Below, in pieces: positions 11,269 through 34,674 of a DNA stretch of 39,560 bases. The notes beneath the pieces were generated by a model. That model was not told the origin of the DNA. It saw only the letters and a list, made by a program, of their open reading frames with translations, and did not search any database. The stretch is from a virus. Taxonomy: Duplodnaviria > Heunggongvirae > Uroviricota > Caudoviricetes. The DNA lies in the IMG/VR virus record IMGVR_UViG_2548876940_000011; one strand, given 5' to 3'. Within the stretch, counting starts at the first letter, position 1. Each line of letters starts with the position of its first letter. Position numbers and translations under genes: made by a program.

Positions 11269-11339
11269 TATTCCGCAAATCCTGCCCACTTTTTCCCACG
11301 GTTACGCTGACTCAGAGAACACCATGAGACAGCGTAACA
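11269..11339 (+). promoter_or_regulatory. Probable activator-dependent promoter for the lysis/late operon
   Basis: 71-bp gap between Mor and the endolysin; no promoter elements confidently read. Confidence 0.3.
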
Positions 11340-11840: not shown

Positions 11841-11952
11841 ACCGTTTCTGGCGACCGCTCATGATTGCGCTGCTGTGTGCTGTTGTGGTGCTGCGGGGTG
11901 TGCTGTGGCTGCGGTGAATAATCCCTTACCAGCCCTGATTGCCGGAGGCTGT

Positions 11953-12505: not shown

Positions 12506-12515
12506 GGAAAAAGGT

Positions 12516-13318: not shown

Positions 13319-13320
13319 CG

Positions 13321-13902
13321 ATGGATAAGCCAACGCGTGGCCGTGTACGCAAGGTGGATTTGCTCCCCGACAGCATCCGTAAGCCGCTGCTGGAAATACT
13401 GCGTGAAAAACGCCTGACGCAGGTCCAGATCCGCGAGGAAATCAACCGCCTGATCCGTGAGGCGGGTCTGCCGGAAGAGCAGCAGCTTTCACCGGCGGCC
13501 ATCAGCCGGGAGGCCTCCCGTAATGAGCTGATTGCCCGTAACCTGCGTGATTTACGCGAGCAGACAAAAGCCATGATGGCCGAACTGGGGGACAAGCCGA
13601 CCGGTGAAACCACGGCACTGATTCTGGAAATGTCCCGCGCCCTGATGTACCGCCGTCTGCGTGCTGCCACCGAATCCCTGAACAGCGACAGCGATGTGGA
13701 TATGCGCCTTATTAAGGACATCCTCCTGTCGGCACAGCATGCGGAAAGTGCCGCCGAGCGCAGCATTAAGCGTGAAAAAGAAATCCGGGCCGCATTTGCT
13801 GAAGAGATGGCGAACGCCGTCACCGACGAGTTGCGCGGCGTGGATGGCATGAGCGAGCAGATAGAATTCCGTATCAGGCAGATGCTGCTTGGTAAGGCGT
13901 AG
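13321..13902 (+). CDS. Mu gp27-like protein (putative small terminase / DNA-recognition subunit)
   Basis: 193 aa immediately upstream of the large terminase; basic N-terminus with HTH-like segment. Confidence 0.6.
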   Translation: MDKPTRGRVRKVDLLPDSIRKPLLEILREKRLTQVQIREEINRLIREAGLPEEQQLSPAAISREASRNELIARNLRDLREQTKAMMAELGDKPTGETTALILEMSRALMYRRLRAATESLNSDSDVDMRLIKDILLSAQHAESAAERSIKREKEIRAAFAEEMANAVTDELRGVDGMSEQIEFRIRQMLLGKA

Positions 13903-13912
13903 GAGGTGAATC

Positions 13913-14161
13913 GTGGTAACAGATAACCGCTCACTGATGAGTAGTGCTCATCAGAAGGCATTCAGTCTTGCAACACAGTTACCTCCTGAAACCATAAAAG
14001 CGTGTCGTGAGTTGACTGAACTCAGCATTGCCGGGGAAATATCCCTGGAACAACTGCATTCGCTGCTGGCAGAGGCTGTCACTGATGAGTTGAGTGGCGT
14101 GGACGTGATGACTGAAGAGCTTGAGTTCCGAATCAAAAGCATTCTGACAGGTAAAGCCTGA
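13913..14161 (+). CDS. Hypothetical protein resembling the C-terminus of the preceding gp27-like protein
   Basis: 82 aa, GTG start after AGGAGGTG; C-terminus AVTDELSGVDVMTEELEFRIKSILTGKA versus AVTDELRGVDGMSEQIEFRIRQMLLGKA in 13321..13902. Confidence 0.4.
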   Translation: MVTDNRSLMSSAHQKAFSLATQLPPETIKACRELTELSIAGEISLEQLHSLLAEAVTDELSGVDVMTEELEFRIKSILTGKA

Positions 14162-18729: not shown

Positions 18730-18850
18730 CGGTCAGTGGCGGGGGTCGAACCCGCATACATGATCCACCCGGAGGCAGGCACCGACTTTACCAGTTAAGC
18801 GTACACTGACCGCCTGTTTATTTTATATTCATCCTTTATGCGGAGGCAAT

Positions 18851-19324
18851 ATGTCATCCATTGATGCCGCTGTCGTTGTTGACGTTACGCGTCTCCAGCG
18901 GGTGTTTGCCCGGCTTCAGTTTGTGGGCGGCGGAAAAGACCTGGCCCGCAGTGTGGCGGAGAGTCTTCTGTCATCGTCAGAAATGGCGTTTGAACAGGAA
19001 AAAGAGCCGGACGGCGAACGCTGGCATGACTGGTCAGATCCTTACCGCAAGTGGCGTACCCGTAAGGGATACACGCCCGGCAAAATCCTGACACTGAACG
19101 GCGATCTGGCCCGCCGCCTGACCACGGATTATGGCGATACCTGGGCGCTGATTGGATCAAATGAACCTTATGCGGCCATTCATCAGTGGGGTGGCCTGCC
19201 TGGTATGCCACCGGGACCGGCGGCCATTGGCGCACGTCCGTATATGGGCTTTGCTCAGGTGGCAGAACAGGAGATCATGGACGAAATCAGAAAACGCTTT
19301 AAAAAGGCCACAGAAACGCCGTAA
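18851..19324 (+). CDS. Virion morphogenesis protein (Mu G-like)
   Basis: 157 aa between F and the protease/scaffold gene; call by position and size. Confidence 0.7.
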   Translation: MSSIDAAVVVDVTRLQRVFARLQFVGGGKDLARSVAESLLSSSEMAFEQEKEPDGERWHDWSDPYRKWRTRKGYTPGKILTLNGDLARRLTTDYGDTWALIGSNEPYAAIHQWGGLPGMPPGPAAIGARPYMGFAQVAEQEIMDEIRKRFKKATETP

Positions 19325-19501
19325 TGGTTTAAGGTATACAAACGCATTGCCTTACCCTCTTCAGGCGCGTGTCGTGATTTTCTAACCTGTATTTAACGGG
19401 CTTTAAAATCTGCGTGAAGCGCCTTTCTCATTTTTCCCCTGTCAGCACTTTCTGAAGTCCCGCAAAACCGGCCCCGAAAAACACCGGCTTATGCTGCCGG
19501 A
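19325..19501 (+). promoter_or_regulatory. G-I intergenic region: probable late promoter for the head operon; candidate central gyrase site
   Basis: 177-bp non-coding gap close to the midpoint of the element; in Mu the equivalent gap carries the I promoter and the strong gyrase site. Confidence 0.3.
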
Positions 19502-20626
19502 ATGAAGACGAAAAACACGCCCAAACTTGCTTATGCCATTCTGAATGCCATCAGCCTGTCCGCAGACGGGGACGGTGACTGGTGTCAGATCATGCCAGCC
19601 GGTCGGGTAAAGGCCCGTGACGGTCGCCCGGAAAAACCGGCGGAAGGCTGGCTGATTAACCATGCGGCCGTTGAGCGTATGGTATCCCGGGTTGTGGCGC
19701 TCAATCAGCCGGTAAAAATTGACTACAACCACCAGACCCTGATTAAGGGGCATCCGGCACCGGCTGCCGGTTTTGTCATGGCCTCACCGGAAAACTTCCG
19801 CTTCAGTGAAGAGCGGGGTTTTGAAGTGCGTCCGGACTGGAACCCTCCGGCCATTGAACACCTGCGCAATAACGAATTTCCCTGGTTTTCCCCGGTGATT
19901 GGTTATGACGAAATCACCGGTGAACCTGTTGAGCTTCGGATGCTGGCTATTACCGGTGACCCCGGTCTGACTGGCATGAATCCTGTCGCCGCACTGTCGG
20001 CGGATGACCTTTATAACGCCTTAAACCCTCCTTTAAAGGACACCTCCATGAATGAGCAATTACGCCAGTTGCTGACGGCGCTCGGTCTGACCGTGGCCGA
20101 CGGTGACGAATTTACACCGGAACTGGGCACGGCGGCGCTGTCTGCCCTTACCGGGATCAAAACCCGTGCGGATGCGCACGACACCCTGAAAACGCAGGTT
20201 GCCAGCCTGTCGGCAGAGCTGGAAACCGCAAAAGGCACACCAACTGGCGGCACTATTGATCTGACGAAATACGTGCCCGTTGAGACGTATAACGCCCTGC
20301 GTACCGAATATGTCGCGTTGTCGGCACAACACGGCAGCACCACGCTGGAGCAGTTGCTGGATAAGGCCGAGTCCGAAGGACGCATTTTCAAAAGCGAACG
20401 CGGATACATGGAAGGACTCGGACAACAGATTGGTGTTGCGGCACTTTCTGCACAGCTTGACGCCCGCCAGCCGGTTGCGGCTCTGACCACTCTTCAGACC
20501 GACACCGTAACCGTGCCGGATAAAAAGACCGCCACCGCTGCGCTGTCGGCTGAAGATATCGCCGCCGCCCATCTGCTGGGTAAAACCGAAGCCGAGTTCC
20601 TGAAAATGAAAGAGGAAATGCAATAA
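19502..20626 (+). CDS. Head protease / scaffold (Mu I-like)
   Basis: 374 aa immediately upstream of the major capsid gene; Ala/Thr-rich C-terminal half. Confidence 0.8.
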   Translation: MKTKNTPKLAYAILNAISLSADGDGDWCQIMPAGRVKARDGRPEKPAEGWLINHAAVERMVSRVVALNQPVKIDYNHQTLIKGHPAPAAGFVMASPENFRFSEERGFEVRPDWNPPAIEHLRNNEFPWFSPVIGYDEITGEPVELRMLAITGDPGLTGMNPVAALSADDLYNALNPPLKDTSMNEQLRQLLTALGLTVADGDEFTPELGTAALSALTGIKTRADAHDTLKTQVASLSAELETAKGTPTGGTIDLTKYVPVETYNALRTEYVALSAQHGSTTLEQLLDKAESEGRIFKSERGYMEGLGQQIGVAALSAQLDARQPVAALTTLQTDTVTVPDKKTATAALSAEDIAAAHLLGKTEAEFLKMKEEMQ

Positions 20627-21573
20627 TGCCTACCCCGATCACACCGGCGATGATCACCGCCCTGATGACGGGCTACCGTTCTGATTTTCAGGCCGGGATG
20701 TCCATGGCTCCGTCTCAGTACCAGAAAATTGCGATGACCGTACCGTCCACGTCGAAATCCAACACCTACGGCTGGCTGGGGCAGTTCCCGCAGTTCCGTG
20801 AGTGGATCGGCTCCCGCGTCATCGAGAAGATGAAAGCCTATGGCTACGCCATCGTGAACAAAACCTTTGAAGGCACCGTTGCCATTAGCCGCGATGACTT
20901 TGAAGACGACAATCTTGGCATCTACTCCCCGTTGTTCCAGGAGATGGGGCGCGCTGCGGCGGCACAACCGGATGAACTGGTCTTTGCTGCACTGCGTGAT
21001 GGTCTGAATGCGGCCTGCTATGACGGCCAGAACTTCTTTGATACCGAACACCCTGTTTACCCCAAAGTGGATGGCTCCGGTGATGCACAGATGGTCAGCA
21101 ATATGTTTGTGGCAAAAACCGGCTCTGTCGGTGCACAGGCGGATTACAGCGGCCCGGCCTGGTATCTGCTTGACTGCTCCCGCGCGGTAAAACCGCTGAT
21201 TTATCAGGATCGCCGCAAGGCCGAACTGGTTGCCCAGACAAAAGTCGATGAAGGCCGTGCGTTTACTGATAACGAGTTTGTGTTCGGTGCTTCCGCCCGT
21301 CGCAATGTGGGCTACGGCTTCTGGCAGATGGCCTACATGATGCAGTCACCGCTGACGCTGGATGCGCTGTGGCACGGCTGGTCAGCCATGCGTGACTTTA
21401 AGGCTGACGGTGGCCGCAAACTCGGCATCAAACCCACCCATATTGTTGTCCCCACCTCGCTGGAAAAACAGGCGGTGCAGCTGCTGGAGCGCGAGCTGTT
21501 CGCGGACGGTAACACCACCGTCTCTAACGAGATGAAGGGCAAGCTGGAGCTGGTTGTCGCGGATTATCTGTAA
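20626..21573 (+). CDS. Major capsid protein (Mu T-like)
   Basis: 315 aa; start overlaps protease stop; position and size. Confidence 0.8.
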   Translation: MPTPITPAMITALMTGYRSDFQAGMSMAPSQYQKIAMTVPSTSKSNTYGWLGQFPQFREWIGSRVIEKMKAYGYAIVNKTFEGTVAISRDDFEDDNLGIYSPLFQEMGRAAAAQPDELVFAALRDGLNAACYDGQNFFDTEHPVYPKVDGSGDAQMVSNMFVAKTGSVGAQADYSGPAWYLLDCSRAVKPLIYQDRRKAELVAQTKVDEGRAFTDNEFVFGASARRNVGYGFWQMAYMMQSPLTLDALWHGWSAMRDFKADGGRKLGIKPTHIVVPTSLEKQAVQLLERELFADGNTTVSNEMKGKLELVVADYL

Positions 21574-21616
21574 ACGGTGAGCCGGGCTTACGGCCCGGCC
21601 CCTGCGGAGGGCAAAT

Positions 21617-21970
21617 ATGAATGAACATCACACTGTGGCAGCAACAGATGATTCAGGCCTTCAGGTCAGTGGTGACAGTCCTGTCACGGTACTGGCAGAA
21701 GTGCGTTGCAGTCGTGCGCAGTTTCGTCGTGCGGGGTTCCTGTTCATGCGGGGACGCCAGCAGGTTGACGTCACCCCGGAGCAGCTTGCCCGACTGGAAG
21801 CGGAGCCATGCCTCACTGTACGAATACTACAGACGCCTGGTGATGATGCGGGAGCCGTGGCGGGTGTGGTTCATGCAGAGACCGGTGCAGATTTAGCCGA
21901 AGCCGGACAGGATGCTCCCCGGAAAAAGACCGGCAATAACGCCAGACAGGCGAAAAAGGCTCGCGCATGA
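21617..21970 (+). CDS. Hypothetical head protein (Mu gp35 position)
   Basis: 117 aa; RBS GGAGGG upstream; stop overlaps next start (ATGA); basic C-terminus. Confidence 0.5.
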   Translation: MNEHHTVAATDDSGLQVSGDSPVTVLAEVRCSRAQFRRAGFLFMRGRQQVDVTPEQLARLEAEPCLTVRILQTPGDDAGAVAGVVHAETGADLAEAGQDAPRKKTGNNARQAKKARA

Positions 21971-22386
21971 ATTACGCCACCGAAACCGATATGCGGGCAC
22001 GTTACCGCGAGGATTTGCTCAGGCCATTACTGGCCGTGCCCCGTTCGGATGAGCCGGACACACGCAAGCTGAACCGGGCACTGACGGACGCGTCTGCCCT
22101 TATCGACAGTTACCTGTCTGCCCGTTACACGCTGCCGCTGGCGGTGGTTCCGGCGGTCCTTGTTCAGCATTGCTGCACGATTGCCTTTTATTACCTGTGC
22201 GATCAGCGGGCATCCGATCAGGCGCGTGACCGTTACCGTGAGGCGCTGGCCTGGCTGAAAGATGTCATGAACGGTAACGTGCCGGTCGGCGTGGATACAG
22301 ACGGTGCGGCCCCTGAATCCGGGGATTTACCGCAGGTGCAGCCTGATGCGGCGGTGTTCGGGCGCAACCAGAAGGGCTTTATATGA
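21967..22386 (+). CDS. Mu J-like head-tail joining protein
   Basis: 139 aa; translationally coupled; synteny between capsid and sheath. Confidence 0.65.
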   Translation: MNYATETDMRARYREDLLRPLLAVPRSDEPDTRKLNRALTDASALIDSYLSARYTLPLAVVPAVLVQHCCTIAFYYLCDQRASDQARDRYREALAWLKDVMNGNVPVGVDTDGAAPESGDLPQVQPDAAVFGRNQKGFI

Positions 22387-22946
22387 TTACGGAAACCGAG
22401 CAAGCGTACATCGCCCGTATCCGTGAGTATTTCGGGAATGAACTGGTGTCTGTTGACACACATCCCGGCGACTGGAGCGACAGCGTACTGCGTACCATGC
22501 TGATTAACGCCCCGGCTATCTATGTTGCCTGGCTGGGTGCCGGTGAAGGGCGTACCCGTGGGCGTCTGGTCAGTCACTGGGTGTTCTACGTCATCGGCGA
22601 CATGCTCAATGGCCGTGAGGTCAGCCGTCCCGGGCTTTATCAGATTGTGGCCCGCCTGATTACCTTGCTGGACGGCTTCAGAGCAGAAAAAACCTCACCG
22701 CTTTACTTTGAAAAGGCGGTCAACGGTTACACCGAAACGCAGGCAGGCAGCGGTGCCGTGATGTACGCCCTGTATTTCTCATGCGAGGAAATGATCGACC
22801 CGCTGACGGATATCAGCTCGCTGGATGATTTCCTGCGCCATTACGAAACCTTTACCGAACCGGAAGGCACGCCGGAGTTTAAGGCACACATCCGTCTGCC
22901 TGGTGCAACTGCCGCCGGTGAAAACGCCGGACCGTCAGAGGAATAA
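22383..22946 (+). CDS. Mu K-like head-tail joining / tail terminator protein
   Basis: 187 aa; overlapping start; synteny. Confidence 0.65.
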   Translation: MITETEQAYIARIREYFGNELVSVDTHPGDWSDSVLRTMLINAPAIYVAWLGAGEGRTRGRLVSHWVFYVIGDMLNGREVSRPGLYQIVARLITLLDGFRAEKTSPLYFEKAVNGYTETQAGSGAVMYALYFSCEEMIDPLTDISSLDDFLRHYETFTEPEGTPEFKAHIRLPGATAAGENAGPSEE

Positions 22947-22949
22947 CAG

Positions 22950-23228
22950 ATGACAACCATTTTTATTAAACCTGCGCCGGGATGCCTGATTCGCGATCCC
23001 GACACGATGACTCCGCTCTCACAGGACGGTGAAGAGAAACCCTTCACTCCGTTCTGGTGCCGCCGTCTTAATGATGGTGACGTCATTGTGGTGGATAAAA
23101 CGGAGGAGCCTGCCCCGGCTGCCACAACAGGTAATACCGGCGCGGCGGCAAAACCAGCGGGAGCGGCAGCAGAAAAAACTGCGGCGGTGGCTGAAAAAAC
23201 CGCAGCATCAGATAAGGGGACGTCCTGA
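22950..23228 (+). CDS. Hypothetical small protein upstream of the sheath gene
   Basis: 92 aa; Ala/Lys-rich C-terminus. Confidence 0.55.
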   Translation: MTTIFIKPAPGCLIRDPDTMTPLSQDGEEKPFTPFWCRRLNDGDVIVVDKTEEPAPAATTGNTGAAAKPAGAAAEKTAAVAEKTAASDKGTS

Positions 23229-24730
23229 TGATTAACTTTGATTATATCGGCGATAACAATCGCATTCCGCTGGTACAGATTGAAATCAATAATTCAATGG
23301 CCGTGACCGGCACTCCACCACAGCGTCAGGCGGTACTGTTGTTTGGTCAGGCTGCAATGAAAGACACCACCATTCAGGGGCGCGGTCAGCTTGATGTACC
23401 AGTACGTATTACCCGAGCTTCACAAGCAAGAGAACTCTGGGGGCGAGGTTCCATGATTGCACTGATGGTAGAGGAATTTATCGCCATTAACCCTGACACA
23501 GAGTTATATGCCATTGCACAGGGGGCTGGAACAGGTCAGTCCAGGGCATGCGTGATGAATATCATTGGAACAGCATTGGCAGACGGGGTGTTAAGTGTTT
23601 ACATCGGCGGTCGCCGTTACCTCCTGCCCGTCAGTAAGGGGAAAAAAGGTAAAGAGCTTGTGGAAGAGCTGGCTAAGGTCATTAACGCTGACACTGATGC
23701 GCCATTCACTGCTATCGCAGCTGAAGTCAGTGGTGATAATGCTGAAGGACTTAAAGGCAGCATGGGGGTTAACGCCCGCTTTATCGGTGAATGCTCAGCT
23801 CATGATTTACGGGTGAACTATTATGACGGTGAAACTACACCGGCCGGTCTTACGCTGGAGCTCGTCGCGCCAACACAGAAGGCAACAAACCCCGATATCA
23901 CCCGTAGCGTCTCAGGGATGGGGAATCGTCAGTACAACTACATCGTCATGCCCTATAAGGATGCGGCAAATCTCAAAATTCTGGCGGATGAACTGCTGAA
24001 ACGCTGGGGACCGGTAAAAATGTCGGACGGTATGGTCTGGATGGCGCATACCGGCACCTTCGGTACGGCAACCAGTTTTGGTGAATCCCGTAATGACTTC
24101 CTGTTTACCTGCACTTCTATTCCTAAAGCACCAGAGCCGGATTATGTCTGGGCTGCCTCCATTTGTGCGGTCTGTGCGCCCTCCCTGTCAACGGATCCGG
24201 CCCGACCATTACAGACACTGGCGCTGCCTGCCCGTATGGCACCTGAAGCACCGGATCGTCTGACGCGGGAAGAGCGAAACAGCCTGCTTTATACCGGCAT
24301 GTCCACGGTGACCGTTGCGGCCGCTGATGTGGTGCAGATTGAACGTCAGGTGACGATGTACCGTCAGAATGCATACGGCGAAAGCGATCCCAGCTATCTG
24401 GATGTAGAAACCATCTACACCCTGTCATATCTGCGTTATTCCCTGCGCACCTTTATCACGCAGCGTTTCCCGCGCCACAAACTGGCCGATAACGGTACTC
24501 CCGTCCGGCCCGGTCAGAATATCGTGACGCCGGAGATTATGACGCTCCAGCTGATTGCACTGGGGGAAGAATGGGTGGAACTCGGGCTGGTCGAAAATCT
24601 GGACACCTTTAAAAAGAATCTGCTCGTGGAGCGCAACACAAAAGACCGTAACCGTCTGGATGTGATGTGTACACCGGATCTGGTTAACCAGTTCCGCTTC
24701 ATGGCCGCGCAGATCCGTTTCATTTTGTGA
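23228..24730 (+). CDS. Contractile tail sheath protein (Mu L-like)
   Basis: 500 aa followed directly by a ~120-aa tube gene. Confidence 0.85.
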   Translation: MINFDYIGDNNRIPLVQIEINNSMAVTGTPPQRQAVLLFGQAAMKDTTIQGRGQLDVPVRITRASQARELWGRGSMIALMVEEFIAINPDTELYAIAQGAGTGQSRACVMNIIGTALADGVLSVYIGGRRYLLPVSKGKKGKELVEELAKVINADTDAPFTAIAAEVSGDNAEGLKGSMGVNARFIGECSAHDLRVNYYDGETTPAGLTLELVAPTQKATNPDITRSVSGMGNRQYNYIVMPYKDAANLKILADELLKRWGPVKMSDGMVWMAHTGTFGTATSFGESRNDFLFTCTSIPKAPEPDYVWAASICAVCAPSLSTDPARPLQTLALPARMAPEAPDRLTREERNSLLYTGMSTVTVAAADVVQIERQVTMYRQNAYGESDPSYLDVETIYTLSYLRYSLRTFITQRFPRHKLADNGTPVRPGQNIVTPEIMTLQLIALGEEWVELGLVENLDTFKKNLLVERNTKDRNRLDVMCTPDLVNQFRFMAAQIRFIL

Positions 24731-24738
24731 GGTAAGGC

Positions 24739-25104
24739 ATGAGCGGAAAACAGCATCAGGGCACGGCCACCATCCGTGTGAACGGACAGGAGTACGCCAC
24801 CCTTGAGGGAGCCACGTTCTCCCCGTCCGGCTTTGAGCGTGAAGTGGTGAAAGGCGCGAAAGTCTATGGCTATCGTGAGAAACCCCGTGAGGCGACGCTG
24901 GACTGTAAATTTCCGGCTGGCGGAGAAGGTTCACCGGCTGCCGATGAAATCAACACCTGGACTGCGGTCACGATTGAGTTCGTGGCCGATACCGGTGAAG
25001 TCCATATGATGACGAAGGCTTGGAGCAGTGAACCGGCCTCGCTTGACGGTGGCGGTGATATCTCCGCGAAGTTCGCCAGCGCCACCAGTACCCGTGTCCA
25101 GTAA
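24739..25104 (+). CDS. Tail tube protein (Mu M-like)
   Basis: 121 aa immediately after the sheath gene. Confidence 0.8.
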   Translation: MSGKQHQGTATIRVNGQEYATLEGATFSPSGFEREVVKGAKVYGYREKPREATLDCKFPAGGEGSPAADEINTWTAVTIEFVADTGEVHMMTKAWSSEPASLDGGGDISAKFASATSTRVQ

Positions 25105-25118
25105 TCAGGAAAAATGCA

Positions 25119-25598
25119 ATGACCACACGTAAGAAAAAAACGGCGGTTTCTGACGAGGCCGTGATGGAGGCTATCCGGGATGCACTTGAAGACGGCGATC
25201 CCCGCACCGCCGGGCTGGCTGAACAGCTGGCGAACGGCTATGTGGATCTGCTCGACGGTCTGCCGTTCGGGGAATCCCGTGAATACCGCGTCACCTTCCG
25301 CGAACTGACGGCGAAAGACAGCATTGACGCGGAAACCGAGGCCGAGCGTCTTATGGAAACCCGAAATGGCGGCCCGGTTCTGATAGCCTCGCCGGCACTG
25401 CGCGGCATTGCACTGCTGCGCCGTCAGATTGCCGCTGTTGGCCAGATTGAGGGGCCATTGTCTCCGCGTCAGATCGGACAGCTCAGCGAGCGCGATCTCT
25501 CCCGTCTGATGGCGGCGGTAAGCCTGCTTGATTCCGCGATGGCAGGAAAGCTGGTCGCTGAACGGGGGCGACCAGATGCAGTGCCGGGATCAGATTGA
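25119..25598 (+). CDS. Tail assembly chaperone candidate
   Basis: 159 aa acidic protein between tube and tape-measure genes. Confidence 0.6.
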   Translation: MTTRKKKTAVSDEAVMEAIRDALEDGDPRTAGLAEQLANGYVDLLDGLPFGESREYRVTFRELTAKDSIDAETEAERLMETRNGGPVLIASPALRGIALLRRQIAAVGQIEGPLSPRQIGQLSERDLSRLMAAVSLLDSAMAGKLVAERGRPDAVPGSD

Positions 25599-25722
25599 AG
25601 AAGCCGCAATTGTGCTGGGGATGGTGACAAAAAGCGGCCCGGAGTGGGCGCTTAACCTCCCTTTATCGCAGCTTTACCGGCACTGCCGACAGACCGAAAA
25701 AATTCTCAGAACGAAGCAGTAA
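25528..25722 (+). CDS. Overlapping +1-frame ORF, candidate frameshift extension of the chaperone
   Basis: 64-aa ORF overlaps the last 71 nt of 25119..25598 in the +1 frame and ends 4 nt before the tape-measure start; G-run AACGGGGGCGAC in the overlap. Confidence 0.4.
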   Translation: MIPRWQESWSLNGGDQMQCRDQIEEAAIVLGMVTKSGPEWALNLPLSQLYRHCRQTEKILRTKQ

Positions 25723-25725
25723 CCC

Positions 25726-27783
25726 ATGGCAAAAAACCTGAAAGCCTCCCTGATTGTCGATTTACTCGGCAATATTTCCGCCAAATCCCGCCAGTGGTCA
25801 CAGGAGCTGGGGGCGTTCTCCCGTTCCGGCAGGACAGGCCTGGGTGGTCTTGGAAATGCAGCCCGCCGGGCCGGTCAGGAAACAGAACTTGTCGGCTCCC
25901 GTATGCAGCGAACGCTTGCCGGTGTTCGTGGCAGCATCCGCACGGTAACGTCAGATTTTGACCGCCTGCAGGGCAGCATTACCGGCACCATCGGGCAGAT
26001 AAGCAACCTTTACGGGATGCTGGCGGGAGGGGCTGCGGTCTACGGTTTTAATAAAGCCTTTATCCGCCCGGCCGCAGAGATGGAGAACTATATTCTGCGT
26101 CTCAACGCCATTAATCATGGCGATACGGCAAAAACGGAAGCAGTGAAAGCCTGGGCAGTACAGAACGCCAAAGACACCACCTGGGGGCTGGCGGGGGTTA
26201 TGCAGGAATACGCCTCCAGTCGCGGGTTTGGCATGAGTGACAGGGAAGCCCGTCGCTTTATTACCATGCTTCAGGATCAGGGCGGCTATCACGGCTGGTC
26301 ACTGTCAGATGCACAGGGTGCGTCCCTGCAACTCAAACAGATGTTTGCCCGCCAGAGTATCCAGGCAGCGGACGCCAATATTCTGACCGGATACGGGATT
26401 AACGTTTACCAGTTACTGGCCGATAAGCTGGGCGTAAACCAGAAGATCATCCGTGAGAAAGGCGAAAAAGGAAAACTGGGGCCGGACAGCATTCGCCTGT
26501 TATTTCAGGTGATGGCCGAACAGGCAAAAGGTGCCCAGAAAAACGCTATGAATTCCTGGACGGGAATGACGTCCATGATGGGCGACGTCTGGGACGGATT
26601 TGCCCGCGAGGTGATGGCAAAGGGACCGTTTGACAGCCTGAAAAAGAGCCTGAAAGGCTTCCTGGATTATGCCGATGCGGCACAGAAAAGCGGCTTACAG
26701 GATAAGCTGGCCACACAGACGGCCTCAGCTCTGAATCAGGGATTTGAGTATGCCAGAGACGCTGCGACCGGCTTTTACCGGGTCATTCAGAAAGTCAGGG
26801 AAACGCTTCAGGCACTGCGCGACGCCGGTTATGGCGATGCGCTGGATCGCATTGGTCAGGGTGCGCAGACCGCCGCAAAGTACCTGATGTATATGTATCT
26901 CGCCTCCCGTGCGCTGAAGGTGCTCAGGTTTGCGGGGACGGGGGCATTACGTCTCGGCGCAACCCCCTTACGCTATGGCATGGCGATGACCTCCGTGCTG
27001 ACGTCGCCCTTCCGCAAACCGCAGACCACTGTACCGGGAACGCAGCCCGGACGCGCTGGCCGGTTCCTGAATTTCCTTACCGGGGTAAATCCGGCTGCCG
27101 TTCAGCCCGTGCTGGTCACCAACTGGCCTGCGGGTGGCCTGGCCTCAGGTGGCGGGGATGTGGTGGTCAGCGGTGACGGCAAAACCGTGCGCGGCCGTAA
27201 AAAACGCGGCCCCGGACGTGGACGGGGTGTCACGACCGTCGTGACTGCCGGTGAGCAACTGGCGGAGAGTGCCGGTAAACAGGGCTTCTTCGGTCGTATG
27301 ATGAGCCGTGCCGGTGGTCTGCTAACGGCGGCCGGAAACCGCATGGGGCTGGGGCGTTTTGCCGGGCTGTTCCGTGGTGCCGGTCGGCTGGGTGGTGGTG
27401 CCCTGTGGGCCGGTGCCATGGCGGCTCCTGTACTGCTGGACAGCAGCGCCAGTGCAGCCGATAAAGCCGGTGCCGTGGGTTCCCTTGCCGGAAGTATCGC
27501 CGGTGGCGCGCTGGGGGCGGCTGCTGGTCCGGTCGGGGTTGCCATTGGTTCCACGGTGGGCAGCTATCTCGGTGATTATCTGGGGGGCTGGCTGACGCAG
27601 GCCTGGCAGAAACTGCGTGGCGGCAGTGACGAAAACGGCGGACAGGCCACCGCGAAAACCGCCGCACGGGTGGAGCTTGTGGCCCCTGAAGGCTGGCGGG
27701 CGCGCAGTATTGATGTGGATGATACCGCACAGCATGGCCTGGATGTGAACGTCTGGAACGGAGGGAACTATGGCCTCTACTGA
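25726..27783 (+). CDS. Tail tape-measure protein (Mu N-like)
   Basis: 685 aa; Gly/Ala-rich C-terminal half; position after tube/chaperone. Confidence 0.85.
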   Translation: MAKNLKASLIVDLLGNISAKSRQWSQELGAFSRSGRTGLGGLGNAARRAGQETELVGSRMQRTLAGVRGSIRTVTSDFDRLQGSITGTIGQISNLYGMLAGGAAVYGFNKAFIRPAAEMENYILRLNAINHGDTAKTEAVKAWAVQNAKDTTWGLAGVMQEYASSRGFGMSDREARRFITMLQDQGGYHGWSLSDAQGASLQLKQMFARQSIQAADANILTGYGINVYQLLADKLGVNQKIIREKGEKGKLGPDSIRLLFQVMAEQAKGAQKNAMNSWTGMTSMMGDVWDGFAREVMAKGPFDSLKKSLKGFLDYADAAQKSGLQDKLATQTASALNQGFEYARDAATGFYRVIQKVRETLQALRDAGYGDALDRIGQGAQTAAKYLMYMYLASRALKVLRFAGTGALRLGATPLRYGMAMTSVLTSPFRKPQTTVPGTQPGRAGRFLNFLTGVNPAAVQPVLVTNWPAGGLASGGGDVVVSGDGKTVRGRKKRGPGRGRGVTTVVTAGEQLAESAGKQGFFGRMMSRAGGLLTAAGNRMGLGRFAGLFRGAGRLGGGALWAGAMAAPVLLDSSASAADKAGAVGSLAGSIAGGALGAAAGPVGVAIGSTVGSYLGDYLGGWLTQAWQKLRGGSDENGGQATAKTAARVELVAPEGWRARSIDVDDTAQHGLDVNVWNGGNYGLY

Positions 27784-29128
27784 CACGCCGGGGCGTGGCT
27801 CCTTTCGTGGCGTACCGTTCCTGGTTTATCAGGAGCAGCGGGAACGGGGCGGACGTAACATTGTGCGCCGTGAATACCCACTGCGTGAAAGCGGCGGTGC
27901 GGATGATCTGGGGCCAAAACTCCCGGAGTTCACATTCACGGTTCTGGTGACCGGAGACGATCTTCAGACACAGCGAAGCCGCCTGCGTGATGCGCTGCGT
28001 GCACCCGGTGCCGGTGAACTGATGCACCCGGATTACGGCACGTTAAACGTGCTGATAAACAGCTTTGAAAGCCGTTATAACGCCAGCGAGCAGGGAACGG
28101 TTGAGTTCACGATCAACGTGATCCCCGCCAGTGACGATACCGCCCCTGCGGTGGCAGAAGATACGGCAGCTGCGCTGGAGCAGAAAAGCGGCTCAGCAAT
28201 GAATCAGCTGTTTAACACGCTTTCAGACGGCTGGACGGTGATTTCAGACGGTCTGCATGATGTACAGGCCATGACCGACACCATCAGCGATAAGATTGAT
28301 GCACTGGAGAATGCCGTTTCGGGGATGGGGATTGTGCAGGATATCAGTGCCTTTACGGCCAGTTTTACTGCCCTGAAAGGCAATGCCGCCGCCCTGATTA
28401 ATGCGCCCCGTCGCATGGCTGAATCGCTGGCCGGAATGTTTGCCGTGCTGACCGGGCTGCCCGACGATCCTTCCCTGTCTCTGACCGGAAAAGCCGGAAC
28501 GCCGTCCGGCAGCCTGACCACAAACCGTGACAGCATAGCAGAGCAGGCCATGCCGCAGCTGTACCGCACACTTTCCTCCCTGCGTTACACCCTCAGCGAA
28601 CAGGATGATCCACAGCGCCTGATTGGCCTGACGCCTGCGGCACAGAAAAATATCCGTCTGCTGCGGAGCGTGATGCAGAGTGCAACCCTGGTGTCGCAGG
28701 CACAGACGCTCGGAAAACTGCTGGATCAGGTCATCCGGCAGAATACGACGCACGTTCAGGATACTGACCGTTCGGGCGGACTGACCTGGCTGGAAAGTTC
28801 TGCTGATGTGCAGCGTATCAACCGGGATTTGAGCGATGCCATGGAACAACAGGTGCTGGATCTGTCCGCACAGGGCTATACCGGGACTGCCCTTGCATTA
28901 CGTGATGCAGGGCTTGCGCTGACAGAAGATTTAACCACACGGAGCGTGCATCTTCCCGGTGCTTTTCAGGTCATGGTTCGCACCACCGAACCGGCACTGG
29001 TCACGCTGTACCGTGCCACCGGCAACAGCAGTCGCTGGCAGTATTTTGTCCGCAGAAACAATATCCCCGATCCGGTTTTTGTTCCGGGTGGCCGCAGCGT
29101 GGAGGTGATCAGTGAGCAGCAGGATTGA
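27770..29128 (+). CDS. Mu P-like baseplate / DNA-circularisation-family protein
   Basis: 452 aa; overlaps tape-measure end. Confidence 0.75.
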   Translation: MASTDTPGRGSFRGVPFLVYQEQRERGGRNIVRREYPLRESGGADDLGPKLPEFTFTVLVTGDDLQTQRSRLRDALRAPGAGELMHPDYGTLNVLINSFESRYNASEQGTVEFTINVIPASDDTAPAVAEDTAAALEQKSGSAMNQLFNTLSDGWTVISDGLHDVQAMTDTISDKIDALENAVSGMGIVQDISAFTASFTALKGNAAALINAPRRMAESLAGMFAVLTGLPDDPSLSLTGKAGTPSGSLTTNRDSIAEQAMPQLYRTLSSLRYTLSEQDDPQRLIGLTPAAQKNIRLLRSVMQSATLVSQAQTLGKLLDQVIRQNTTHVQDTDRSGGLTWLESSADVQRINRDLSDAMEQQVLDLSAQGYTGTALALRDAGLALTEDLTTRSVHLPGAFQVMVRTTEPALVTLYRATGNSSRWQYFVRRNNIPDPVFVPGGRSVEVISEQQD

Positions 29129-30236
29129 ACTGTATATCGGTGGCAGTATTTTTTCCGGCTGGCTGACGGTCAGCGTCCGTCGCTCGCTGGAGCATCTGGC
29201 CGGGTCGTTTGAACTGGGGCTGATGCTGCCCGGTGAGCGCATCCCCTCAGCCCTGCGAACCGGTCAGTCCCTGACGCTCAGAATTAACGGGCAGACGGTC
29301 ATCAGTGGCTGGCTGGATCAGGTCAGTCAGCGGATCAGTGCAACCCGTCATCAGATCAGCATCAGCGGTCGGGATAAAACCGGCGACCTGGTGGACTGTG
29401 CCGCCATCCATCCCGGCAGCCAGTGGCGCAACCGGACGCTGGCACAGATTGCCGCAGATTTATGTGCGCCCTTCGGGATAGCCGTGCGCTGGCAGGTTAA
29501 CGACGACACGGCTGCACGCCCCTTCAGCTCTTTTACGCTGGAAAACTCAGAAACCGTGGCGGATGCGCTGACCCGTGCTGCCCGGCATCGCGGGGTGCTG
29601 GTGACCAGTAATGCTGACGGCGATCTGGTGTTCACCCAGGCAGGAAGCCAGCAGACGGACAGACTGGTGCTGGGAGATAACCTGCTTGATGCCGATTACA
29701 ACACGGACTGGCGAGGACGATACAGCGAATACCGTGTCCGGGGACACGGGCGCGGTGGTGGCAAACGGGGAGACAGCGAATCCGCCGCCCGTCTGGCAGC
29801 ACCTGTGGGCGTCATCAGTGATGAGCAGATCGGCCGCTACCGGCCGAAAATCATCCTCGCCGATCAACAGACAGACACCACCGGTGCACGGCAGCGTGCC
29901 CTGCGTGAAATGCGCCGTGCGATTGCCCGTTCAGAACGGTTTTCTGCCACCGTGCGTGGCTGGTTCCGGGATGATGGCCGGTTATGGGATGTCAATCTGC
30001 TGACCGGTGTTTCAGCCCTGCGTTTCGGTATAGAACAGACTGAACTGCTGGTCTGTCAGGTAGAGTTTTTACTTGATGAACATAACGGGGAAGTCACCCG
30101 GCTGGTACTGGCACCGCGTGACGGCTTTATCGTTCCGGCAGAGCCGGACAGTAAGGGCCGGGGTGGTTCCGGTGACGATGTTGATGCCTTTATTCGCCAG
30201 CAGATGAAAAAACAGGGGATCAGCTTTGATGAATGA
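29112..30236 (+). CDS. Mu Q-like baseplate hub protein
   Basis: 374 aa; overlapping start. Confidence 0.75.
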   Translation: MSSRIELYIGGSIFSGWLTVSVRRSLEHLAGSFELGLMLPGERIPSALRTGQSLTLRINGQTVISGWLDQVSQRISATRHQISISGRDKTGDLVDCAAIHPGSQWRNRTLAQIAADLCAPFGIAVRWQVNDDTAARPFSSFTLENSETVADALTRAARHRGVLVTSNADGDLVFTQAGSQQTDRLVLGDNLLDADYNTDWRGRYSEYRVRGHGRGGGKRGDSESAARLAAPVGVISDEQIGRYRPKIILADQQTDTTGARQRALREMRRAIARSERFSATVRGWFRDDGRLWDVNLLTGVSALRFGIEQTELLVCQVEFLLDEHNGEVTRLVLAPRDGFIVPAEPDSKGRGGSGDDVDAFIRQQMKKQGISFDE

Positions 30237-30840
30237 TGAAGTGTTCAGCCGCCTGATTGCCCCGGTAACGCGCGGTATTCGCCTGTTGTTTGGCCGGGGC
30301 GTTCTGACCGGCACACATGACGAACTGAAAATGCAGAATGTGCAGCTCACCGGCATGGACGGCGAAACCTTTGATGATGTGGAGCGTCCCCAGCAGTACG
30401 GGCAGATCAGCGTTCCCCTGCCGGGTGCGGAAACCTTTTTTGCCTGTCTGGGCGGACAGCGGGATCAGACTGTGGTGCTTGTGGTGGAAGACCGGCGCAG
30501 CCGCCCGACCGGACTCACAGCCGGAGATACGGGGGTGTATCACCATGAGGGGCACCGGATACGGTTAACAAAGGATGGTCGCATTATTGTGACATGCAAA
30601 ATGCTGGAGATTTACGCCGATGAGGGGATGCGGGTGGATACGCCGGAGGCCACCTTTACGGGCAATGTGACGGTGGATAAAAACCTGCATGTTAAGGGTA
30701 ATTTCGTGCTTGATGGTACAGGTAAATCAGACGGGCTGTTCACGATGTCTGATGCCGTTATTGCCGGGATCACCTATTCCGGCCATGTGCATCAGGATAA
30801 CGGCAAAGGCAGTAAGACAGGAGCGCCGGAGAATGGCTGA
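30226..30840 (+). CDS. Baseplate assembly / spike protein V-like
   Basis: 204 aa; overlapping start. Confidence 0.7.
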   Translation: MMNDEVFSRLIAPVTRGIRLLFGRGVLTGTHDELKMQNVQLTGMDGETFDDVERPQQYGQISVPLPGAETFFACLGGQRDQTVVLVVEDRRSRPTGLTAGDTGVYHHEGHRIRLTKDGRIIVTCKMLEIYADEGMRVDTPEATFTGNVTVDKNLHVKGNFVLDGTGKSDGLFTMSDAVIAGITYSGHVHQDNGKGSKTGAPENG

Positions 30841-31270
30841 TATTGCAATTGTATGGGATCAGGGGTGCGGTTCGCTGCAACTGAACGGTGCCGACCTGCT
30901 GACGGATGACAGTCTGCTGACGGCCGTTCTGATTTCGCTGTTTACTGACCGCCGGGCGCTGGCATCGGATGAAATCCCTGACGGTACGCGTGACCGCCGG
31001 GGATGGTGGGGAGACAGTTTTCGCCCGCGTCCCATTGGCTCCCGTCTGTGGTTTCTCCGCCGGGAAAAAACGCTGGCCTCCGTGATAAGCCGTGCCCGTG
31101 CCTATGCGGATGAGGCGCTGGGCTGGCTCAGTCAGGATGGCGTGGCGTCATCCGTGGTCTGTCATGCAGAACGTGTGGGGCACGCGCGGCTGGCGCTTTC
31201 GGTGCGCATAACCCTGCCTGATGGTTCAGTGAGGCCCATGATTTTTTATGCTGATCTTAAGGGGGAGTAA
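30833..31270 (+). CDS. Baseplate wedge protein (Mu W / GP25-like)
   Basis: ORF 30689..31270; in-frame ATG at 30833 overlaps the V stop (ATGGCTGA), giving MADIAIVWDQG, 145 aa. Confidence 0.7.
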   Translation: MADIAIVWDQGCGSLQLNGADLLTDDSLLTAVLISLFTDRRALASDEIPDGTRDRRGWWGDSFRPRPIGSRLWFLRREKTLASVISRARAYADEALGWLSQDGVASSVVCHAERVGHARLALSVRITLPDGSVRPMIFYADLKGE

Positions 31271-32352
31271 TGCCTTATCAGCCTTTACCGCTGGCACAGT
31301 TAATCACGCAGACACAGCAGGATATCAGCCAGCGCCTGCCCGGCTCGCAGCCGGGTGTGAATGAAACCACCCTGAATGCCATTGCTTACGCTCAGGCAGG
31401 GTTATCTGCTCAGGAGCATGAGCATCTGGCCTGGATTGCGCGTCAGATCATCCCGACCGAAGCCGATGAAGCCGAACTGCTGAAACACTGTGCATTCTGG
31501 GGCGTCATGCGTAAGCCTGCCTCTCGGGGGGACGGGCCGGTTCAGCTGATGCTGACCACGGATGCGGGGATCAAGGAAGGTGTGCTTCTCCAGCGAAGTG
31601 ATGGCGTGGTTTACCGTATCACCACCTCACTGACCGGTAAGGCCGGTACGCTGAATGTCAGTGTGGAAGCCGAAAGTGCCGGTCGTGCGGGGAATGCCCC
31701 GGCAGGGACAAAACTGACATTTATCACACCGCAGGCGGGGATCAACCAGACGGCCACGGTGACAGGAACGGGGATCACCGGTGGTGCGGATGTGGAAACC
31801 GTGCCGGAGCTGCTTTCCCGTCTGGTTTTCCGGGTGCAGAATCCACCGTCCGGCGGCACGCAGTATGATTTTGAACGCTGGGCGCGTGAAGTGCCGGGCG
31901 TGACGCGGGCATGGTGCCGCCCGGAATGGCCGCAGGCGGGCAGCGTGGGGGTAACGTTTGTTCAGGATAATAACCCGGATATTTTCCCCGGTGACGGTGA
32001 TGTTCAGCGGGTGGCGGATTATATCCGCAGTCATGATGATCCGGCGACCGGCCAGCCTGTCGGACAGCCTCTGGGGCCGACGGTGACCGTGTTTAAACTG
32101 ACCAATAAGCCGGTGCCCTTCAGCATCAGGATCATCCCGAAAACACCGGAGAATCAGGCGGCCGTAAAACAGGCGCTGACCGACCTGTTATACAACGAAT
32201 CCCGGCCCGGCGGTCTGGTTCTGCCGTCGTCTTTCTGGCGTGCTGTGGCGGGGGTGAAAAATCTGGAGGATTTTGAAGTGCGCAGTCCGCTGACGTCAGT
32301 TCAGGCGGGAGACAGTGAGCTGCTGACGGTGGGAGAAATCACATGGCTGTAA
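31270..32352 (+). CDS. Baseplate J-like wedge protein (Mu gp47-like)
   Basis: 360 aa; overlapping start. Confidence 0.8.
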   Translation: MPYQPLPLAQLITQTQQDISQRLPGSQPGVNETTLNAIAYAQAGLSAQEHEHLAWIARQIIPTEADEAELLKHCAFWGVMRKPASRGDGPVQLMLTTDAGIKEGVLLQRSDGVVYRITTSLTGKAGTLNVSVEAESAGRAGNAPAGTKLTFITPQAGINQTATVTGTGITGGADVETVPELLSRLVFRVQNPPSGGTQYDFERWAREVPGVTRAWCRPEWPQAGSVGVTFVQDNNPDIFPGDGDVQRVADYIRSHDDPATGQPVGQPLGPTVTVFKLTNKPVPFSIRIIPKTPENQAAVKQALTDLLYNESRPGGLVLPSSFWRAVAGVKNLEDFEVRSPLTSVQAGDSELLTVGEITWL

Positions 32353-32903
32353 CCCTGACCCCACATCAGCGCGCCCTGTTGCAGTTACTGCCTGACGGGC
32401 TGGCATGGGACAAGCGTCCGTCATCCGTACTGGCATCATTATGTCTGGGCCTCAGTCATTCGACAGCGCGTGTATCCTGGACGGGTAAACAGCTGCTTGC
32501 CGAGCGTTTCCCTGACACGTCGCGCCTGCTGCTGGAAGACTGGGAGCGTTATCTCGGGCTTCCCGAGTGTGATATGGCCGGAGCCACCCTCACGGAGCGA
32601 CAGCGTTATGCCGGCAATAAATACCGGATGAAGCCCTCGCTGAACCGTGAATTTTATATCCGGTTTGCGGCGGAGTTTGGTTATCAGATTGACATTCAGC
32701 CCTCACCGGATTCGCAGTGGGTCAGTATTGTCACGATTAACAGTGAAACCGGCTACCGGAATATGAATGTGCTGGATGATATTCTCACGCCGCTGCGTAT
32801 TTATGAAGGCGGTGCGCTGGAATGTATTCTGAACCGTTATAAGCCTGCATGGCAGACGTTTATTTACGTTTATGCAAACAGCCATGAAGAGGAGACTATT
32901 TAA
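32343..32903 (+). CDS. Tail protein (Mu gp48-like)
   Basis: 186 aa; overlaps both neighbours. Confidence 0.7.
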   Translation: MAVTLTPHQRALLQLLPDGLAWDKRPSSVLASLCLGLSHSTARVSWTGKQLLAERFPDTSRLLLEDWERYLGLPECDMAGATLTERQRYAGNKYRMKPSLNREFYIRFAAEFGYQIDIQPSPDSQWVSIVTINSETGYRNMNVLDDILTPLRIYEGGALECILNRYKPAWQTFIYVYANSHEEETI

Positions 32904-33814
32904 TGTTTCATGTTGATAATAATTCCGGCGTGGCGAATATGCCTGCGCTGGCACCGGCGCAGAGTAATACCACCACCTGGTTTACCGAAGGTGACGGACA
33001 AAAAGGTATCAGCTGGATTGGTCAGGACTGGCTGAATATTCTCCAGGCCGAACTGCTGAATATTCTGGCTGAAGCCAGTATTCAGCCGGATAAGGCGCAG
33101 TTAAACCAGCTTACGCTGTCCATTAAAGCCATTATCGCTGCGAATGCCTTTTCCCGGAAAAATAACCTGAAAGAAATTGCTGATGCCGGTGCGGAGGCCC
33201 AGCGTCTGGCCCGTGGTTATCTTGGTCTGGGGACGCTTGCCATAAAAAACAGTCTTGGTCCCGGTGACGTTAATGCCCTGGCGAAGGATCAGAATCTCGC
33301 CGACCTGGAGAATAAGGGAACCGCCCGTAATAATCTGGATGTTTACAGCAAAAGCGAAGGTGATAACCGTTACCTGCGCAGGGAGCAGAACGGCGCAGAC
33401 ATTCCGGATAAAGGGGCTTTTATCGATAACGTCGGTTTACGGGAAACGGTGAATAAGGCGGCGAATGCTCTGCCATCGGACGGCACCGCCGTTGCCGCGA
33501 ATAAACTCTCCACCCCAAGAAATATTAATGGCGTTCCTTTTGACGGGACGCAGGACATATACATTACCTCCGGTATGACTGAAGCTACTGCTGATAACAA
33601 ATACGTTAGCAACGTTCAGCTTGGTGCCCAGAGTTACCATTCACCCGGAGGTAATGAAATGTCCTGGAGTTATGGTGCACCTTCTGGTTGTATGCTTTCA
33701 GGTATTAACGTGCAGGATACCGGGAAAAGTTCAGCCGATAATATCGGAGGCGTTTATTACCGTCCGGTGCAGATATATATCGGTAATGCCTGGCGCACAG
33801 TTTCATCCGTCTGA
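32903..33814 (+). CDS. Tail fibre protein (Mu S-like), constant N-terminal part plus short variable C-terminal part
   Basis: 303 aa; fibre-repeat-like NINGVPFDGTQDIYITS; internal gix-like site at 33420..33445. Confidence 0.8.
   Translation: MFHVDNNSGVANMPALAPAQSNTTTWFTEGDGQKGISWIGQDWLNILQAELLNILAEASIQPDKAQLNQLTLSIKAIIAANAFSRKNNLKEIADAGAEAQRLARGYLGLGTLAIKNSLGPGDVNALAKDQNLADLENKGTARNNLDVYSKSEGDNRYLRREQNGADIPDKGAFIDNVGLRETVNKAANALPSDGTAVAANKLSTPRNINGVPFDGTQDIYITSGMTEATADNKYVSNVQLGAQSYHSPGGNEMSWSYGAPSGCMLSGINVQDTGKSSADNIGGVYYRPVQIYIGNAWRTVSSV
33420..33445. other. gix-like DNA-invertase crossover site inside the tail-fibre gene
   Basis: TTATCGATAACGTCGGTTTACGGGAA; reverse complement TTCCCGTAAACCGACGTTATCGATAA matches the recalled Mu gix consensus TTCCTGTAAACCGAGGTTTTGGATAA at about 23 of 26 positions. 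Confidence 0.55.
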
Positions 33815-33848
33815 TTAAAGGAAAAGGGTGCGATAAGCACCCTTTATG

Positions 33849-34370
33849 TTATTCAGGCTTCTCCGGCCATTTAATGGCGTCAAATTCAGCTTTGTTTTTA
33901 ATCGCTGGTAGTTCCATTTTTTTCACCTGACTGATGTATTTCATCCATCGTGTAAGCGCAGCTCTGTTTTCATCACTAATCGTGCCCAGCTGTAACTCAG
34001 TTCTCCAGTCATTAATCTTTTCATATGCCTGATTAAGATATGACTGGCGCAGTGCTTCCGCTTTTTTGGTATAGTTAACCGGGAGTTGTGAGATGACACC
34101 ATTATCAAACTTCCAGTTACCTGAAATATCAGTACCTTCAGGTAATTCGTCTGTCTCAACAACGGAAAAACCCGCAGGATACAGCGCCGAAGCATCCTGT
34201 GATATTGAGCAGATAACACCGCTGTCAGGGGTTATGCAAAGTTTATATTTTTTGGTGAATAATGGCAGGGACTCATAGAAATCCTTACCATCTTCACTTT
34301 GAAAATACTGTACATCATTACCAAAGGGTTTTTGTTCCGGGTAATATCGGTTAACATTAATCAGTTGCAT
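33849..34370 (-). CDS. Tail-fibre assembly chaperone (Tfa / Mu U-like), opposite strand to the fibre gene
   Basis: ORF 33849..34421; from Met at 34370 reads MQLINVNRYYPEQ...; ISQDASALYPAGFSVVET and C-terminal DWRTELQLGTISDENRAALTRWMKYISQV are typical of Tfa (compare recalled P2 G: ITRDASTLNPEGFSVVEV). Confidence 0.75.
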   Translation of the reverse strand: MQLINVNRYYPEQKPFGNDVQYFQSEDGKDFYESLPLFTKKYKLCITPDSGVICSISQDASALYPAGFSVVETDELPEGTDISGNWKFDNGVISQLPVNYTKKAEALRQSYLNQAYEKINDWRTELQLGTISDENRAALTRWMKYISQVKKMELPAIKNKAEFDAIKWPEKPE

Positions 34371-34674
34371 AAACATCACCATGTAAATCAATGATAAAAA
34401 CAGGAATAATAATATCGCCATATACAGGCAAGGGGTTTCTGAAATAACGCATATTTTCAGATGCTGACCGCAGCGTCATGAATCGTTAAATCAATTATAA
34501 GCCGGTAATATGCGGTTATCGTATTGGCCTGTCCATCCTTTGTCGTTATGTTCCTGCCTAACCGGCTCCGTCACAAAAAGTACCGTGATGCTTTTTTTGA
34601 ATTTCCGCAAAACACATATTTATCAGCGGTTGTTATTCTGACTCTGTTTAATTCAGAAACAGGCAGAAAAGACG

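Follow-up and report, generated by a model that had tools for sequence, protein, structure and literature searches.

Among the closest described counterparts of the locus discussed here is the G segment of bacteriophage Mu, an invertible host-range switch served by the Gin recombinase and gix crossover sites, of the serine-invertase type to which the P1 C and e14 P switches also belong. The Mu genes run in the order baseplate, S, invertible segment, gin and, further on, com and mom; the fibre protein S has 504 residues, and there are two fibre assembly genes, U and U'. A Fis-dependent enhancer lies within the 5' part of gin. Laboratory gin-minus phages locked in the G(+) state, which are engineered or selected mutants, illustrate that loss of the invertase fixes one fibre type and its host range and leaves the phage viable. 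The locking of such switches, natural or in the laboratory, is familiar.

A second system is SfMu, a Mu-like phage of Shigella, for which two kinds of lysate gave the same host range; its authors suggest that a 1-bp change in one inverted repeat impairs G inversion (PMC4406740). The tip of SfMu gp52 is 59% identical to the variable fibre tip (Sv) of our locus, but gin, the two sites, the two tips and both tail-fibre assembly (tfa) genes are all retained in SfMu, and any freezing there would be a point change and not a deletion. A third is prophage Sp18 of E. coli O157:H7 Sakai (ECs_4989-4992), which shares about 94% nucleotide identity with our locus over gp48 and the constant part of the fibre gene (Sc), and presents the order fibre, convergent tfa, alternative tip (S'v), DNA-invertase and DUF6645 gene. 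Unlike our locus, Sp18 retains S'v, the right-hand site and the invertase, and both of its sites have the central dinucleotide TT in place of TC. A literature search found no account of an invertible segment with a single tfa, or of Sp18-like prophages without gin.

The DNA analysed here, called the window throughout, is a viral stretch of 39,560 nucleotides (IMG/VR record IMGVR_UViG_2548876940_000011). Its fibre locus is a relic of the Mu G/Gin-gix switch in the Sp18-like version, an ordinary decay product that involves no new mechanism. We hold with considerable confidence that the switch was lost by a single 870-bp deletion, and that the window preserves a fossil switch of the Mu G-segment type, locked in one position. 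The locus differs from Mu in having one crossover site, no gin and no alternative tip, and from the laboratory gin-minus phages in having arisen by a natural deletion, in a lineage present in several E. coli strains. Features are collected in Table 1.

Table 1. Coordinates, in the window, of the prophage, the fibre locus and the remains of the switch
Feature	Position	Strand	Basis or remark
Sp18-like Mu-like transposable prophage	200..39083 (ends approximate)	+	Pfam matches and limits of homology
Tail-fibre gene, 303 aa	32903..33814	+	Mu S homologue, PDB 5yvq_A, E 9e-49
Sc, constant fibre part	32903..33419	+	5' of the crossover site
Former left arm of the long inverted repeat	33415..33579	+	In relatives repeated, inverted, at the start of S'v
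gixL-type crossover site TTATCGATAACG-TC-GGTTTACGGGAA, now an orphan without partner	33420..33445		Match to Mu gix and to the left site of relatives
Sv, variable fibre tip, locked ON	33446..33814	+	3' of the crossover site
GC-rich hairpin separating the stop codons of the fibre gene and tfa, which converge	33823..33845		Terminator scan
tfa, 173 aa, the sole tail-fibre assembly gene	33849..34370 (longest ORF to 34421)	-	Caudo_TAP and Mu U; convergent with fibre gene
Conserved block upstream of tfa (S'v-to-tfa spacer of relatives), dyad CTGAAAATA/TTATTTCAG	34371..34456	-	94% identity to O157 copies
S'v 3' stub, 66 nt, decayed	34457..34522	-	Collinear with L006 4511..4582, where the S'v coding sequence ends
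Sigma-70-like TGGACA-17-CATATT, lying across the junction and directed towards tfa	34507..34535	-	Hypothetical only
Deletion junction	34522..34523		870 bp absent relative to STEC299 (L006 4583..5452)
gin 3' stub, 66 nt, about the last 21 codons	34523..34588	+	tblastn and translation
Esterase cargo gene (SASA and DUF6645)	34675..36729	+	Pfam; adjoins the switch, outside it

The prophage and its relatives with a full switch

Most of the window is occupied by a Mu-like prophage whose gene set looks whole, including repressor, Ner-like, MuA, MuB, GemA, portal, gpT, sheath, tape measure, baseplate, fibre, Com and Mom genes. Pfam matches were obtained for a CI-type repressor, a Ner-like HTH, baseplate J/gp47, gp48, Mu-transpos_C, Phage-MuB_C, Portal_Mu, Mu-like_gpT and Mom. 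Homology to other E. coli genomes ceases at about 200 and 39083, beyond which the host flanks vary by genome, and a direct repeat of ACGGA (195-199 and 39083-39087) brackets the element. With MuA and MuB, a Mu-type portal and head, Com and Mom, and insertion at unrelated host sites, it belongs with the Sp18-like transposable phages. Positions 10170..39083 share 99.9% identity with a prophage of E. coli S1-CAM-01-A, in which no recombinase is annotated; the left part and the flanks differ between the two, and the window is therefore another copy. Matches to the gp48-Sc region occur in 230 of 5426 complete E. coli genomes, Sakai O157:H7 with Sp18 among them.

Five relatives retain the full switch (HH35, STEC299, DETEC-S792, 2012EL-2448 and Sakai Sp18), and all share one gene order: fibre (+), tfa (-), S'v (-), a recombinase of 186-190 aa (+) and the DUF6645 gene. 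The S'v gene in such gin+ relatives appears as an N-terminally incomplete "tail protein" on the minus strand, and the recombinase is 76% identical to Mu Gin. The succession of baseplate, fibre, segment, gin and, further on, com and mom agrees with that of Mu. There are, however, differences from Mu even in these intact loci, which have one tfa where Mu has U and U', short fibres (293-303 aa against 504) and a cargo block between gin and com. Every gin+ locus examined contains an inverted repeat of 145-184 bp; the left site forms one of its inner ends, and an inverted right site, for example TTCCTGAAAACC-TC-GGTTTACGGGAA, forms the other. The central dinucleotide is TT at both Sakai sites and TC at both sites in the other copies, a paired change of the kind expected of functional crossover sites.

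The segment was found in both orientations. Strands and coordinates of the constant region and of the segment were compared, annotated loci included, and 18 of the 20 gin+ copies examined lie in the window's orientation. The two flipped copies are in FWSEC0008 and in the second prophage of CI5; there tfa follows the fibre gene and is co-oriented with it, and a segment 85-93% identical to the Sv tip of the window sits in the OFF position. The comparison with related Mu-like prophages that the first-pass annotation had recommended thus turned up an identical left site, an inverted partner and a Gin-like recombinase in the gin+ relatives. Its central proposal of a frozen host-range switch is well borne out, since the complete layout, gixL-Sv> <tfa <S'v-gixR followed by gin, is found in relatives of 90-98% nucleotide identity, with both orientations among them.

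The orphan crossover site

Two regions of the fibre protein can be placed on Mu S. Residues 1-198 align with Mu S 1-191, and tip residues 228-302 align with Mu S 434-503, the C-terminus of the protein in the S-U complex (entry 5yvq). Between constant part and tip lies the near-consensus crossover site that had been picked out by the first-pass annotation, and this observation is confirmed. Its sequence, TTATCGATAACGTCGGTTTACGGGAA, agrees in 22 of 26 bases with Mu gix (the two G-segment boundaries, both taken from AF083977, are each TTATCCAAAACCTCGGTTTACAGGAA), it falls on the same codons of the homologous S gene (F-I-Q-N-L-G-L-Q-E in Mu S, F-I-D-N-V-G-L-R-E in the window), and it agrees in every base with the left site of close gin+ relatives, including the Sakai Sp18 family.

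A search for the exact gix pattern with up to 3 mismatches gave no match, since the site has 4, and a half-site weight matrix was used instead, built on 5 distinct real sites from Mu and seven relatives. The orphan site scores 29.8 bits and the runner-up in the window 15.4, against best scores per shuffled window with a mean of 12.1 and a maximum of 17.5 (30 shuffles). The site is therefore real, and there is no second one. The scan also answers the first-pass proposal of a systematic search for a second, inverted gix-like site, as nothing in the window rises above the shuffles.

The repeat arm to which the site belonged can likewise be traced. The former left arm matches the minus strand of a relative's locus (L001 3924..3761) at 89.7% and the STEC299 locus (L006 4885..4723) at 86%, and the window has no inverted repeat that pairs with the site. 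Scans of the switch region with Rfam and for tRNAs gave no matches.

It might be argued that the gix-like sequence is conserved fibre coding sequence and nothing else, the lineage never having had a switch and its simple arrangement being ancestral. The site does encode the conserved FIDNVGLRE, and protein constraint alone could keep it. However, a decayed 3' end, of S'v on one side and of gin on the other, adjoins a clean junction (see below), which already refutes this idea, and the flanks are 90-99.5% identical to gin+ relatives; we see virtually no chance that it is right.

A single deletion removed the rest of the switch

Alignment to the STEC299 locus (L006) locates the loss. Window 32900..34522 is collinear with L006 2955..4582 (90.8%) and window 34522..34800 with L006 5453..5724 (90.7%). 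Lost in the gap of 870 bp were the 5' three quarters of S'v, the right-hand site (gixR), the promoter region of gin and its codons 1-169, and the inverted arm of about 165 bp went with them. Also deleted is the region homologous to the enhancer-bearing 5' part of Mu gin. Microhomology at the junction amounts to at most 1 base, and the event was therefore an illegitimate deletion and not a site-specific one.

Both sides of the junction carry the end of a broken gene. The S'v stub reads ...TITAYYR and is frameshifted thereafter, where the intact version reads ...TVTAYYRPIQYLINGSWRTAGST-stop. The gin stub translates as IGLSILCRYVPA-stop-PAPSQKVP-stop, with an in-frame TAA at 34559..34561, where relatives have IGLSTLYRYFPASPAPSPKVP-stop. 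These remnants qualify two statements of the first-pass annotation. It had reported no gin-like recombinase, and indeed a tblastn search of the window with a relative's Gin found no invertase gene, only the 3' stub near 34523..34585; the 66-nt stub itself had been missed. It had also reported no alternative fibre segment, and intact S'v is absent, but 66 frameshifted nucleotides of its 3' end survive in the window. The idea that the second fibre and the invertase had been replaced by cargo has to be given up in favour of a plain 870-bp deletion: the DUF6645/SASA esterase gene occupies the corresponding position in all gin+ relatives, to the right of their gin, and therefore replaced nothing. 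No point against the deletion itself was noted.

The ancestral layout was Sc-[gixL-Sv> <tfa <S'v-gixR]-gin, which the one deletion just described cut short. Left with a single site and lacking the invertase, the segment cannot invert, and the Sc-Sv fibre is the sole form that the phage makes. By analogy with Mu G(+), the locked tip may be the E. coli-infecting state, because 18 of 20 gin+ copies share its orientation. If the locked tip does infect E. coli, loss of the alternative tip would have been cheap in that host.

An assembler confused by the inverted repeat, as assemblers can be, might have collapsed it and lost the segment. The junction lies away from the repeat, however, and recurs identically in at least 7 independent complete genomes with 0-9% divergence around it, which makes such an artefact extraordinarily improbable.

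There is also the suggestion, again from the first-pass annotation, that the switch depends on an invertase supplied in trans. On such a reading it still works, and a Gin/Pin/Cin-type enzyme of another prophage would pair the orphan site with a degenerate partner, for example near 34551 or 36790. The orphan site is itself intact, and some hosts do carry a gin+ sister prophage (CI5). The two partners, on the other hand, do not withstand inspection. The first, TTCCTGCCTAACC near 34551, is coding sequence of the gin stub, namely the codons V-P-A-stop-P (within R-Y-V-P-A-stop). The second is not among the 12 best matrix scores, and the stretch 34522..37400, which contains it, recurs at 99.5% identity in a gin+ relative that has its real partner site at another place. 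The best remaining score in the window stays below the shuffle maximum, the inverted arm and the 5' part of gin (enhancer-bearing in Mu) are gone along with the partner site, and segment inversion was not seen among the five frozen loci examined, all of which have the same orientation; it is in gin+ relatives alone that the segment is met both ways round. That an invertase acting in trans could invert it is not credible, and we regard a switch that still works in this manner as very unlikely.

A single tfa, antisense to the fibre gene

The statement that the only tfa lies convergently on the minus strand after the fibre stop proved correct. The product matches Pfam Caudo_TAP with 74.1 bits (cut-off 22.1) and Mu U with E 8e-16 (5yvq_B, 31% identity), and tblastn found no second tfa in the window. 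A terminator scan picks out the hairpin between the two convergent genes on the plus strand of the window and, in L006, its counterpart on the minus strand; it is likely a bidirectional terminator. The ATG at 34421, which would give tfa a hydrophobic in-frame extension, was rejected as the real start: the codon is ATA in loci L003 and L007, and Mu U lacks any comparable extension.

Throughout the Sp18-like family one tfa is provided for two tips, and it is co-oriented with S'v alone. The gene is usually antisense to the expressed fibre. The first 100 or so residues of Tfa, among them the stretch alignable with Mu U, are near-invariant among copies with different Sv and S'v tips. The Sv tip is 54-59% identical to the tips of SfMu gp52 and of P2-like H proteins, each of which is directly trailed by a co-oriented tfa.

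In the frozen state the single convergent tfa might still serve the Sv tip if it has its own promoter, which would lie within the 150 bp retained ahead of the gene. Upstream of tfa, a 96-bp block keeps 94% identity even to O157 copies in which tfa itself has dropped to 67%, a degree of conservation that suggests a regulatory element. No likeness to the com/mom upstream region was seen by eye, and a search for a late-promoter motif shared between the block and the rest of the window gave at best 4 mismatches in 22 bases. The sigma-70-like sequence at the junction is one of 3 such hits in a scan of the region for which shuffles predict 2.9, giving it no statistical support, and intact L006, where the number of hits likewise equals that in shuffles, has no minus-strand sigma-70 hit upstream of tfa.

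Is the gene still in use, or is it a dead passenger that has not yet decayed, the Sv tip folding without Tfa or with the Tfa of another prophage? The passenger status would suit a gene that runs antisense to late transcription and for which no significant promoter was found. The only recent changes in tfa within frozen sub-lineages, 3 non-synonymous and 0 synonymous, would also fit relaxed selection. Against this, tfa is intact in all five frozen loci examined and the stubs beside it have acquired stops and frameshifts; the antisense layout is the majority state in gin+ relatives; and homologous tips elsewhere are paired with a Tfa. We consider a dead passenger possible, though the less probable case. 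Between frozen copies dN/dS in tfa is 0.11-0.16, a value confounded by recombination or allele exchange (divergence is about 10% in tfa and about 3% in the adjacent stub region), and for that reason it was dropped as a test of function in the frozen state. Our view is that tfa is probably still needed; the claim that it is still used is a weak one.

A more elaborate proposal would make the frozen lineage a selected specialisation. Two tips would share one Tfa that is expressed whatever the orientation of the segment, and the deletion would both lock the E. coli-infecting tip and create a junction promoter, TGGACA-17-CATATT (34535..34507, minus), driving antisense tfa. We think this improbable.

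Frozen copies in other genomes

The junction is not peculiar to the window. It is identical in five frozen loci (the window, JE86-ST02, M18, M3 and CI5), and matches spanning it at full length were found in S1-CAM-01-A, JE86-ST05 (in two places), M18, M1 and CI5; a copy truncated by IS1, in strain 600029, retains it as well. All told, at least 7 complete E. coli genomes have the same junction, at differing insertion sites. Frozen copies interrupt bcsA, an hsdR-like gene and an xdhA-like gene, and another adjoins citF. The JE86 strains hold two copies, and CI5 has one frozen prophage and one intact, gin+ sister. Two different Sv tips, of 303 and 293 aa, are represented among the frozen copies.

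Given a shared junction at different insertion sites, the frozen phage probably stayed mobile, that is, it probably kept transposing or infecting after the deletion. That said, CI5 holds a frozen and an intact copy, and because of this some share of the spread could be due to homologous recombination between co-resident Mu-like prophages, and not to infection.

Implications for the Sp18-like family

In annotation terms, this prophage has a fixed fibre type, and its unpaired gix-type site and the stubs of S'v and gin are best recorded as relics. For phage biology, the lineage offers a natural example of a phage abandoning host-range bet-hedging, through one deletion event now seen in at least 7 genomes. 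The more useful lead, if a modest one, is the family as a whole: Sp18-like segments, found in about 230 of 5426 complete E. coli genomes, make do with a single tfa for their two tips, which bears on how the Tfa chaperone is expressed and on its specificity.

The single tail-fibre assembly gene and its upstream region

Each invertible segment in the Sp18-like prophages L001, L003, L004, L006, L007, L012 and L013 carries only one tfa, co-oriented with the alternative fibre tip S'v, whereas Mu and SfMu have one tfa for each tip. In the family members that keep the full switch (gin+), tfa was antisense to the expressed fibre gene in 18 of the 20 assemblies examined.

The block lying upstream of tfa shares 94% identity with the O157 copies, while tfa itself is only 67% identical to the tfa of those copies. 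Within the block is a dyad, CTGAAAATA-N4-TTATTTCAG, as well as an in-frame, 17-codon hydrophobic extension whose ATG is not conserved. This block may be a regulatory element.

Coordinates of features in the window and related prophages
Feature	Location	Strand	Remarks
96-bp block upstream of tfa	window 34371..34456	minus	
Sigma-70-like TGGACA-17-CATATT	window 34507..34535	minus	directed toward tfa
Cargo block	window 34675..37346		between former gin and com/mom
Sp18 crossover sites	L012 6581..6606 and ~7945..7970		central dinucleotide TT in both
IS1 and truncated copy, strain 600029	L005 2248..3349		copy starts at window-equivalent 34452
ISKpn26, S1-CAM-01-A	L015 10435..11415		absent from the window; compared with window ~9204..10170

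The deletion junction and other prophage copies

The -35 element of the sigma-70-like sequence is supplied by the gin stub and the -10 by the S'v stub, and the sequence was therefore created by the deletion; statistical support for it is absent. The same S'v/gin deletion junction is retained by a truncated prophage copy in strain 600029, which adjoins IS1 and is located within a lambdoid prophage remnant. Apart from an ISKpn26 in its early region, the S1-CAM-01-A prophage is 99.9% identical to the window; its left 10 kb is a mosaic relative to the window, at 85-99% identity.

Crossover sites

Both crossover sites have TC as their central dinucleotide in other family members, as opposed to the TT of Sp18, a difference that is a change made in pair at the crossover position. 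The orphan site of the window (33420..33445) differs by one non-synonymous change in each of two frozen copies (those bearing the deletion): GTC is replaced by ATC in M18, and GAA by GAT in CI5. These substitutions fit relaxed constraint on the DNA site, two being too few for a test.

The cargo block

To the right of the former gin lies a gene for a SASA carbohydrate esterase of 684 aa that includes DUF6645, followed by small genes for DUF1378 and DUF826. Relatives that are gin+ carry this block as well (Sakai ECs_4993-4995 among them). Over part of its length, the esterase gene matches genes of P2-like phages at 76% identity. The block appears to be a moron block that other temperate phages share.
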